Assembly: GCA_965153355.1 (NCBI GenBank)
Contig: OZ231126.1
Span: 28,830,001-28,894,000 of the forward strand
Direction of reading: 5' to 3'
Origin: Flaccisagitta enflata
Taxonomy: Eukaryota
DNA: 64,000 bases
This document shows positions 51,801-54,800 of this stretch, piece by piece (the stretch's first letter is position 1; every line of letters starts with the position of its first letter). Under the pieces are notes generated by a model. The model did not search any database. It was not told the origin of the DNA and was given only the letters and a program-made list of their open reading frames with translations. Both the position numbers and the translations under genes were made by a program.

Positions 51801-54800
51801 GTTTCAAAATCCTGAGGCGTTATCAATGTCCATTTCGGTCGTTATGTCCCACGGACTAAAGCCCAATTGCTTTCTCACGCACAGATGGCCACCATGTGCA
51901 ACATAGAGCGTGCATTGACGGTAGTTGGTTGCATAACCGTCTCGGCTATTCTTTACAACATCCCACGCTTCCTGGAAATCATCGACACGGAAAACGCGCC
52001 CAAAAGTGGCCAAATTGACAAGATGTATATTCTGGTATACAAGACCTGGATGTATTGCGTTCTCTACGCAATCGCGCCCCTTCTCATACTGCTGGTAAAT
52101 TGAATATTGATTTATTTCGATATTCAGGCAAATCAGCATAAACCAGTCTGTCCGCGCTCACTGTTGCTAGCTTCGCCGGTTGTAAGAGTAATTCAGAACG
52201 AGAATAGACGGTCTGAGAAAATGTTTTATTTGTAAACAATTGGTAAACGACTCATGTAAACAAATGGAGGCTAAGTTATCACAACAAACTTATCAAATCA
52301 AACATCAAGTAATGATTCTAAGAATGTCATATACCTGAGAAAACTTCTACAATTGTCCAGCTCTACAGTAATCGCGGAATTATTAATTCATAGCAATGAA
52401 ATTCATAATTGTTCTTAATCTGGGAAAAGAGAGAGAATCATAATGGTTAGTAAATGTTTTCTTCCTTTACCACTGAAACAAAAGGAAAAAGAATAAATAC
52501 GTAGGAATTAACCACTGAATACGTAGGAATTAACCACTGAATACGTAGGAATTAACCACAGAACATGTTCTTATATAAAGAAAACCATCGACGAATGGTT
52601 CTTATACAGAAAATCTGTCTCCGTTATATTCGAGAAACGAAGCGATGTTAATTAAGCAAAGAAATCACCAGAGGGTGAGTTTAAGGAAAGGAATCGGGTG
52701 AGTTTAAATGGGCAAACAAATGAACACAGCGCCGGAAGCGCGCACACAGTCCATATTTCGGTGTACTAATACTACCAACGAGGAAATCTGCGAGTGAGCG
52801 CAGGCTGACCTGGGAGGCAGTATTAAAGGCATTTTATTTTTACGACTAAGGTTCTCAACACGTGCATCATAAAAGCGCTGCATCAGCGATATAAAATGAA
52901 ATTACGCCTGACGTCCCAAGGATCCAGCGGATCGACGACCACGAAAAAGAAAGTTAAAGTAAGACGGTGCAACGACCATGACTGTCACAAATAATATAAC
53001 CCGAGACGAAAAAACGTGATTCAAAGCCAATATGCCACCGACAGATGATTGCAGTCGAATGACCAAATAAGGTAGTGGGTGGGGTTGCATACGAGTGCCA
53101 CGATTTATTCCATTAAATCACCCATTTTTTGTCCACCACCCACTTTCGCTACAGTCGGATACCCACGTCAACATCATTTGTATCGCCGTCGTGATTCTAT
53201 TCTTAGTGTGTCAGTTGCCATTTATCGTCGCTACCATGATTTGGGCCATATTCTTCCAAGGAAATCTCTTCGATGTCAGATCTAACGTAAGTAGACACTT
53301 CTTCATTCTCATGCATGGGATCCTCAATACCGTTGCTACTAGTGTAAAAAGATTGTTTCTGTTAACCGGAACTGTGAAACGTTTGAATATCTGTGGTTTG
53401 TTCTTATTACATGGTCCGTAAAGAATTAAAATTAAGTGACACAGCACCGGTTATCAGCACTTTCTTAAGACATAACGCTCAGTCTGTAGATTTAGTCGTG
53501 GACGCATAATTTTGCATGGCTATATACAGAGTTTGTTAATAACAACTTTTGACAGTTCTGATAAGTTCGCGCATTGATTTCAAATATCTAAAAATTCCGT
53601 AATGCAGTAGCAAATTTGCTGCGATATTCCTACATAACGGTATGAATCAAAATTCAGAACTATCAAAAACATTTGAATGAACATTTATTTACTTCATGAC
53701 AGGATGAATCAAAATTCAGAAATATCAAAAATAATTGAACGAACAAATTTTGGAACATACGTTCACAGACAATTGAGGTGCTTTGATTCAAGAGGCTATC
53801 ATTTGATTTCAGGGCGCTGTCTGGTTGAACAAATTGAATTCAGTCAGCATATTTTTAATGAGCTTCAACGCAGCGGTCAACTGCTGCATCTATCGGTTCA
53901 GACCCATGAGAACTGTAAATGACCCGTGGTATGTTCGTGAATACATAGCCCTTCCTATCAAACTGCAACTTCAACACCAAAGTTACCTGTAACGAATTAA
54001 TAACCAGCGGCATCTTTTCATAACTGAAGAAGCAACTGTATGGAAATCAATACAATGTTTTGCGAGGTCAGTTTCATGGTGGGGTATTATTCCATTGAGC
54101 AATATACTCGACCCCTATGGGCCAGAATAACCCATGGTGCTTGCTTATATTGAACAGATATTGTCAACCACAGCAGCCCAGCCTGTAGCATTAGAAAGCA
54201 TGCAATTGACTACCAACTAGCATGATGGTAACAAACCATAACCTCCTCCCATTGCCCAGTATTGTAAATTGTGAATACATCGCGCGCACTTTCCAACTTT
54301 TAAGATTTCTACCTATTTGTCTTTTACAGTCACGTGCATTGGGGATGCTTATAAATCTGAATTCTTGGGCAATCATGACCGCGACAATAAATTCCGCCAC
54401 TAACTTCTTACTGTATTGTGCCTTTTCGTCTGGATTCCGGAAAACATTCTTGGAAGTTATCCATATTCGTATTGGGGGTGAGTCAAGAACTTTGATATCC
54501 AGACTGTAAAATGTATACCTCTTGATCTTTTTCAAAAAAAAAAAGCTTAAAAACAACAGTCCTCGACTGTAGTCTATTTGATGTCCGACCCGGCTACTCA
54601 GTCTGACCCGGCTACTCAGTCTGACCCGGCTACTCAGTCTGACCCGGCTACTCAGTCTGACCCGGCTACTCAGTCTGACCCGGCTACTCAGTCTGACCCG
54701 GCTACTCAGTCTGACCCGGCTACTCAGTCTGACCCGGCTACTCAGTCTGACCCGGCTACTCAGTCTGACCCGGCTACTCAGTCTGACCCGGCTACTCAGT

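Follow-up and report, generated by a model that had tools for sequence, protein, structure and literature searches.

Can one receptor gene exchange its last membrane helix by the choice of a single exon? This question is raised by a GPCR (G-protein-coupled receptor) gene on the plus strand of a 64,000-nucleotide (nt) stretch of the Flaccisagitta enflata genome (assembly GCA_965153355.1, contig OZ231126.1, positions 28,830,001 to 28,894,000). This whole stretch is hereafter called the window, and all positions are counted from its first letter. An earlier note on this DNA had pointed to two exons that could each open the seventh transmembrane helix (TM7), namely exon B at 54330-54477 and a second reading frame, exon A, at 53813-53992, in the intron between the exon for TM6 and exon B. 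It had proposed an old exon duplication giving mutually exclusive isoforms. As described below, some transcripts from two independent samples do contain the region of exon A as a genuine spliced segment, and exon A is probably an old duplicate, expressed as a cassette that is joined to exon B.

Our reading of the sequence bore out both TM7-like frames together with their acceptors, their phases and the stop at 53990. Exon A opens behind the acceptor tttcag/GGC at 53813 in phase 0, and its frame, which is closed upstream by a TGA two codons before this acceptor, runs for 59 codons to the TAA at 53990-53992. It would encode an alternative third extracellular loop (ECL3) and TM7, followed by a tail of 32 amino acids (aa). 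Exon B is the constitutive exon of 148 nt, which begins behind the acceptor ttttacag/TCA at 54330, ends in phase 1 with GGG/gtgagt at 54477 and carries ECL3, TM7 and helix 8 (FRKTF). The signature N-x-x-x-N-x-x-x-Y, ascribed by the note to both exons, is indeed found in both and in the same register, residue i of exon A corresponding to residue i+2 of exon B. In exon A it reads N-A-A-V-N-C-C-I-Y, and the proline position of NPxxY is occupied by Cys in exon A and by Phe in exon B. The acceptor at 53813 has pyrimidines at 10 of 17 positions, as compared with 10-13 of 17 for the verified acceptors of the gene.

Expression of the exon A region has been observed at the RNA level. The gene is represented in nine RNA runs, among which eight marine metatranscriptomes from three studies contain 5-18% of its sampled words; the alignment of four RNA runs covered positions 52800-54560. 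Assembled contigs show the presence of a sequence and not its absence, they cannot show the ends of an RNA, and their depth is a poor measure of expression. In run X1, one contig (record 1; 432 nt, depth 4.48) passes from the end of exon 3 through exons 4 and 5 to exon B, with GT..AG joints at 52958^53155 and 53286^54330. Another contig of X1 (record 2; 325 nt, depth 3.23) follows the window without a break from 53786 to 54064/66, where it passes over to 54328/30 (GT..AG, cut +2). This joint, 54066^54330, connects the donor GAG/gtcagt at 54066/54067 to the acceptor of exon B and unites A and B in one RNA. We designate the expressed segment from 53786, where the contig begins, to 54066 as A-long. 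Run X2, from another study, contains a contig contiguous over 53883-54035 (record 3; depth 3.9) and an exon B contig (record 4; depth 2.19), whose loose end behind 54478 matches the sequence from 55806 onward and defines exon 7. The depths of the two contigs on A-long (3.23 and 3.9) resemble those of the contigs on constitutive exons (4.48 and 2.19). The spliced joints, together with the finding that no contig of X1 or X2 lies on the rest of either flanking intron, indicate RNA rather than contaminating DNA. Neither X6, an oligo-dT metatranscriptome, nor X9, raw poly(A) reads amounting to about 6% of the run, gave a match to 52800-54560, and these two data sets are no evidence either way.

As judged by sequence comparison, the similarity between exon A and exon B is specific and beyond chance. 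BLASTP aligned the two exons with 8 of 20 residues identical at E 0.007. In the ungapped i/i+2 register, 9 of 33 residues and 40% of the bases are identical, whereas 13 other offsets gave only 1-4 identical residues and 18-32% identical bases. In this register residue 8 of exon A pairs with residue 10 of exon B, so that the paired residues stand at a similar distance behind an in-phase acceptor, and the match is on the same strand as exon B and in the adjoining intron. When the 23-aa core of exon B was scored without gaps (BLOSUM62) against all 46,489 positions of open six-frame reading frames, exon A was the best non-self match, with a score of 39 and the next at 27. The same scan of the 64-kb window with the exon B core of a related species (P0001) as the query gave 46 for exon A and 35 for the next position. 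Dinucleotide-preserving shuffles of intron 5 never reached the exon A scores (0 of 1000), their maxima being 30 with the own core and 36 with the P0001 core; no copy of intron 5 sequence was found elsewhere in the window. We also observed that exon A scores higher against the exon B core of the related species (46) than against its own exon B (39). The likeness of exon A is to its own exon B, as in the shared start L-N-S, rather than to TM7 helices in general, and this is what is expected of an exon duplicate. The earlier proposal of an old exon duplication is supported by this specific similarity, by codon usage and by a coding-like composition. At six of the nine identical positions the two exons differ in their codons; as judged by the DNA the duplication is therefore old, while the N, N and Y of TM7 have been retained with their spacing.

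Several further features of exon A are like those of coding sequence. The G+C fractions at the first, second and third codon positions (GC1, GC2 and GC3) of its first 34 codons are 0.26, 0.44 and 0.65; GC3 of exons 1-5 is 0.60, the GC content of the flanking intron is 0.34, and at 53813 GC rises from 0.33 to 0.45. The third-position excess of the 34 codons was equalled by 0.19% of 3,674 intronic windows of 102 nt, which overlap and are not independent, and for the full 59 codons a comparable excess was found in 1.2% of 3,091 windows. Hydropathy of the helix over 19 aa is 1.48 for exon A and 1.19 for exon B. In an exact look-up of six open reading frames (ORFs) of the window around exon A, only the minus-strand ORF at 53858-54013 was matched (P0021; 2 contigs, a singleton cluster).

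The best explanation that we can offer is as follows. Exon A would have arisen by tandem duplication of the TM7 exon's 5' part (ECL3 and TM7) and have diverged since; it lies in the intron that separates the TM6 exon from exon B. A-long would be an alternatively included cassette, which ends at 54066/54067, is spliced to the exon B acceptor and is skipped by the main mRNA. In-phase entry at 53813 would lead to the stop at 53990 and to a receptor of 364 aa, in which TM1-TM6 are unchanged and ECL3 and TM7 are different; this form would have the 32-aa tail, would lack helix 8 and the Ser/Thr-rich tail, and would turn exon B and the later exons into 3' untranslated region (UTR). For this whole explanation, an old tandem ECL3/TM7 duplicate used as an alternatively included, stop-carrying cassette with in-phase entry at 53813, we regard the chances as evenly balanced. 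The polyadenylation motifs AATAAA and ATTAAA are absent between 53990 and 54330, which suggests that A is not a terminal exon and fits its splicing onward. The note had assigned a tail of about 30 aa to exon A, and at the protein level this would still hold if the 53813 acceptor is used, because the stop precedes exon B. A changed ligand pocket, coupling or desensitisation may then follow, as may the effect on GRK/arrestin regulation that the note had put forward.

Whether the frame of exon A is translated is more doubtful, though translation is a real possibility. The coding-like features favour it. It is disfavoured by the contig that reads through the acceptor, by the lack of helix 8 and by a stop that precedes three exon junctions. 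More tentative again is the view that exon A has been maintained as a translated alternative TM7, so that one splice choice would swap ECL3 and TM7 and delete helix 8 and the Ser/Thr-rich tail. The following observations weigh against such a role. The RNA evidence consists of five low-depth contigs, two in X1 and three in X2, and the main RNA form skips exon A, record 1 of X1 passing straight from 53286 to 54330. The junction 53286^54330, one of the two proposed by the note for an RNA check, was thus seen, whereas the other, 53286^53813, was not seen among the contigs over 52800-54560, where depth is very low. The sole contig over the 53813 acceptor (record 2 of X1) extends 27 nt into the upstream intron. 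The stop at 53990 lies 76 nt ahead of a splice junction and upstream of three exon junctions, and an mRNA carrying it might be degraded instead of translated. The likeness to exon B ends directly after the Tyr of TM7, and no helix-8 motif F-R-K was found in exon A, in its own frame or in the other frames. Profile comparison, also proposed by the note, did not bear out a TM7 identity for exon A: Pfam gave no family for exon A alone at E up to 10, and a TM7 profile built from eight distant relatives did not set it apart from random ORFs of the window, placing the exon A ORF at about 11th of 2,623 ORFs with E 1.6; even with exon B added to the profile it was 6th, with E 0.36. A search for exon A in proteins of 105-2000 aa in a collection of 5.8 billion proteins found none, two candidates having appeared of which neither scored.

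Many of these observations are also accounted for if exon A is a relic, a duplicate that once was coding and has turned into a poison exon. Poison cassette exons carry an in-frame stop and are skipped in the main mRNA. According to this explanation, A-long is entered via 53769 or 53778, or with a retained intron, and the frame then ends at TGA 53784-86; including the segment would do no more than reduce the amount of working receptor, or would reflect noise in splicing. AG dinucleotides do exist at 53768 and 53777, with pyrimidines at 9 of 17 positions each, and entry behind either of them would stop the frame from exon 5 at that TGA within 3-6 codons. The upstream intron sequence in the sole contig over 53813, the missing helix 8 and profile match, and the stop upstream of three junctions are all consistent with it. 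Exon A is like poison exons in its in-frame stop, and both the skipping form and the 3' junction of A were seen in RNA, the 5' junction not being seen. To our knowledge, however, it is not usual for a poison exon to be a diverged copy of the coding exon that follows it, with a functional motif kept in frame, and exon A differs from such exons in being a copy of this sort, with the motif in frame behind its acceptor. Synonymous sites between A and B are saturated, yet the TM7 residues, the 59-codon frame and the GC3 periodicity have been retained, which is hard to reconcile with long neutral decay, and the open frame begins precisely where the 53813 acceptor stands. We consider the relic explanation rather unlikely, though it is the chief rival of the preferred one.

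An internal transcript start is improbable. Here a shorter transcript would start within intron 5, close to 53786, with A-long as its first exon and exon B spliced on behind it. The contig begins inside the intron and has no exon 5 sequence, and an ATG at 54040 (nine codons, 54040-54066) is in frame with exon B across 54066^54330, so that the transcript could give a fragment of about 250 aa made up of TM7 and the tail, or no protein at all. A precedent is the M2 muscarinic receptor, for which a C-terminal fragment that is translated by itself has been described (PMC11093360). Against this explanation, contigs do not mark the start of an RNA, an in-frame ATG is expected by chance in one of three cases, and the coding-like features of the A frame are left unexplained.

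Strict mutual exclusivity, in which A or B is used and each leads either to a receptor of full length or to a 3' end of its own, is less probable still. Mutually exclusive exons of the tandemly duplicated kind are adjoining and homologous, their lengths are equal modulo 3, and the two do not occur together in an mRNA. Exons A and B resemble such pairs in being adjoining, homologous, on the same strand and provided with phase-0 acceptors. They differ in their lengths, which are 254 nt (2 modulo 3) for exon A from 53813 to the observed donor and 148 nt (1 modulo 3) for exon B, and in occurring together in one RNA. This union at the joint 54066^54330 means that A and B are not mutually exclusive and contradicts the earlier claim of mutually exclusive isoforms for the sampled RNAs. 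Exon A does contain GT dinucleotides at 53915, 53929 and 53982, and by frame reading an exon A that ended at 53914 (102 nt, phase 0) could be joined in frame to the last exon at 56096, and one that ended at 53981 (169 nt, phase 1) to exon 7. The first two are the internal donors that the note had suggested; the dinucleotides exist as it said, but both contigs that cover exon A read straight through all three sites. The only donor inside exon A with the phase of exon B is the poor AAA/gttacc at 53982. There is no poly(A) signal after the A stop, and no inverted repeats of at least 12 nt that might provide competing RNA pairing were found in 53200-54500. A chance resemblance of an intronic open frame to TM7 is the least probable of all, since exon A, although the generic TM7 profile puts several random ORFs of the window above it and the BLASTP E value comes from one comparison, heads all the scanned positions with both exon B queries, is unmatched by the shuffles, and lies transcribed on the same strand, in the adjoining intron and in the same register behind an in-phase acceptor.

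For the preferred explanation, a duplicated ECL3/TM7 segment spliced as a cassette to exon B, the nearest described system is, by analogy, the ecdysis-triggering-hormone receptor (ETHR) of arthropods. It is described as one neuropeptide-GPCR gene whose forms, ETHR-A and ETHR-B, share 5' exons and have two homologous alternative 3' coding exons with their own stops; the two forms are not equally sensitive to the ligand and are expressed in different cells (PMC8175484). Like these, exon A is homologous to a constitutive exon and has its own stop (53990-92). The alternatives of ETHR, however, extend from the end of TM4 as far as the C-terminus, which is about 60% of the protein, and only one of the two is used at a time; in the present gene only ECL3 and TM7 are duplicated, the copy is without helix 8 and tail, and the RNA containing A continues into exon B. 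Another comparison is offered by the tachykinin-related peptide receptor of Aplysia, whose forms A and B are reported to have common helices, C-termini differing in length and make-up, and different desensitisation (PMC11365428). There TM7 is common and the tail differs, whereas in our gene TM7 itself would be exchanged. A search of the full-text literature, which did not extend to supplements and is not a proof of absence, found no GPCR with a duplicated alternative exon for TM7 alone.

The gene as a whole was modelled by reading the sequence and translating the joined exons with a script. It is an eight-exon class A GPCR gene at 50145-56551 on the plus strand, with a main product of 547 aa; all introns up to exon B are in phase 0, the end of exon B is in phase 1, and exon 7 brings the phase back to 0. 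Exon 1 (50145-50378) contains the ATG, the N-terminus and TM1, ends in phase 0 and is open in the spliced translation. Exon 2 (51485-51715) encodes TM2-TM3 with the DRY motif (VDRYIAV), its enclosing ORF matching Pfam 7tm_1. Exon 3 (51885-52094), assigned by reading, encodes TM4, ECL2 and the start of TM5, and its last 30 bases are found in the loose end of record 1 of X1 ahead of 52850. Exon 4 (52851-52958) encodes the end of TM5 and the third intracellular loop and is followed by the joint 52958^53155. Within exon 4, at 52889 and 52904, the X1 contig has G and the window has A; both are silent third positions (CGA to CGG and TTA to TTG), and the differences fit strain variation under purifying selection, editing being possible as well. 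Exon 5 (53155-53286), bounded in record 1 by joints on both sides, encodes TM6 (FLVCQLPF), has a weak 7tm_1 match (E 0.0066) and ends in phase 0 with the donor AAC/gtaagt at 53286. It is followed by A-long (53786-54066), the intron at 54067-54329, which was spliced out with a GT..AG joint in record 2 of X1, and exon B. Exon 7 (55805-55929), which is known from the loose end of record 4 of X2, encodes part of the C-tail in an open frame, entering in phase 1 and leaving in phase 0. The last coding exon (56096-56551) carries the Ser/Thr-rich tail and the stop; it is drawn from sequence and translation, no RNA junction 55929^56096 having been seen in the alignment, which covered 52800-54560, and an AATAAA follows at 56793. 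The tail of the main form after the TM7 Tyr is 213 aa, in agreement with the approximately 200 aa given by the note, which had missed exon 7.

Sequence evidence supports the assignment of the gene to class A as a peptide-receptor-like orphan. Class A receptors have seven helices and are marked by D-R-Y behind TM3, C-x-x-P within TM6 and N-P/x-x-x-Y within TM7; the 547-aa translation shows class A helix motifs (D-R-Y, the TM6 motif and NFLLY in exon B) and aligns with eight relatives. The exon 2 ORF matches Pfam 7tm_1 with E 1.6e-13 (51.2 bits, cut-off 30.5), and in PDB it comes closest to opioid, angiotensin and chemokine receptors, with E about 1e-7, a resemblance to solved structures that is only suggestive as to the ligand class. 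Among 1.84 billion representative proteins, only 18 match exon 2 at E 0.001. Two of these, P0003 from the same species (100%) and P0004 from a close species (86%), are genomic read-through ORFs, and the remaining ones are GPCRs with 30-52% identity. The nearest full-length relatives, P0006 and P0010, are 35-52% identical over exon 2, and both pass the 7tm_1 and Srw models. Exon B alone has a weak match to the C-terminal part of 7TM_GPCR_Srw (15.3 bits, below the cut-off of 22.2; E 0.012), a model that we take to be linked to FMRFamide receptors, and a FMRFamide-receptor-like identity is only a lead. A related genome contains two ORFs, P0001 and P0002, with 89-90% protein identity to exon B (89% for P0001), and its exon 2 is the 86% identical P0004. 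An alignment of exon B against JGI metagenome contigs gave 244 pattern matches, of which none was confirmed, the species evidently being outside that collection. The window yielded no second receptor gene; the one candidate, a weak tblastn match at 34227-34730, proved to be low-complexity sequence and was rejected.

The window contains various repeats, some of which lie near these exons. In intron 5, just upstream of A-long, there is an almost tandem 57-nt direct repeat (53627-53683 and 53689-53745; 84% identical). The intron after exon B contains an 18-nt tandem array at 54583-54883, with 16.8 copies of the unit GTCTGACCCGGCTACTCA, and about 250 nt of A/T-rich low-complexity repeats at 54914-55161, in which runs of A are interrupted by TTTTTC. 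An array of 95.7 copies of the near-identical unit GTCTCACCCGGCTACTCC is found 30 kb upstream, at 22900-24579, and the two arrays look like members of a dispersed minisatellite family. Long microsatellites of the AC/GT and GA/CT types (14347-15385, 25943-26805, 62144-63757 and others) make up the longest 'ORFs' of the window.

The analysis provides a gene model of eight exons and 547 aa for an otherwise unannotated orphan receptor, in which the junctions within 52800-54560 are now anchored by RNA. If the frame of exon A is not translated, the locus would hold nothing more unusual than a relic exon that has found new use as an unproductive cassette. If it is translated, tandem exon duplication would here have given a stop-carrying cassette instead of a classical mutually exclusive pair, and the gene would be a compact natural experiment on the separate contributions of TM7, helix 8 and the C-tail in a peptide-type GPCR. 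Should exon A be a maintained and translated TM7, one gene would supply two receptors that may differ in their ligand pocket and in their handling by G proteins and arrestin, and the mRNA of one of them would carry the constitutive TM7 exon, unused, within the 3' UTR.

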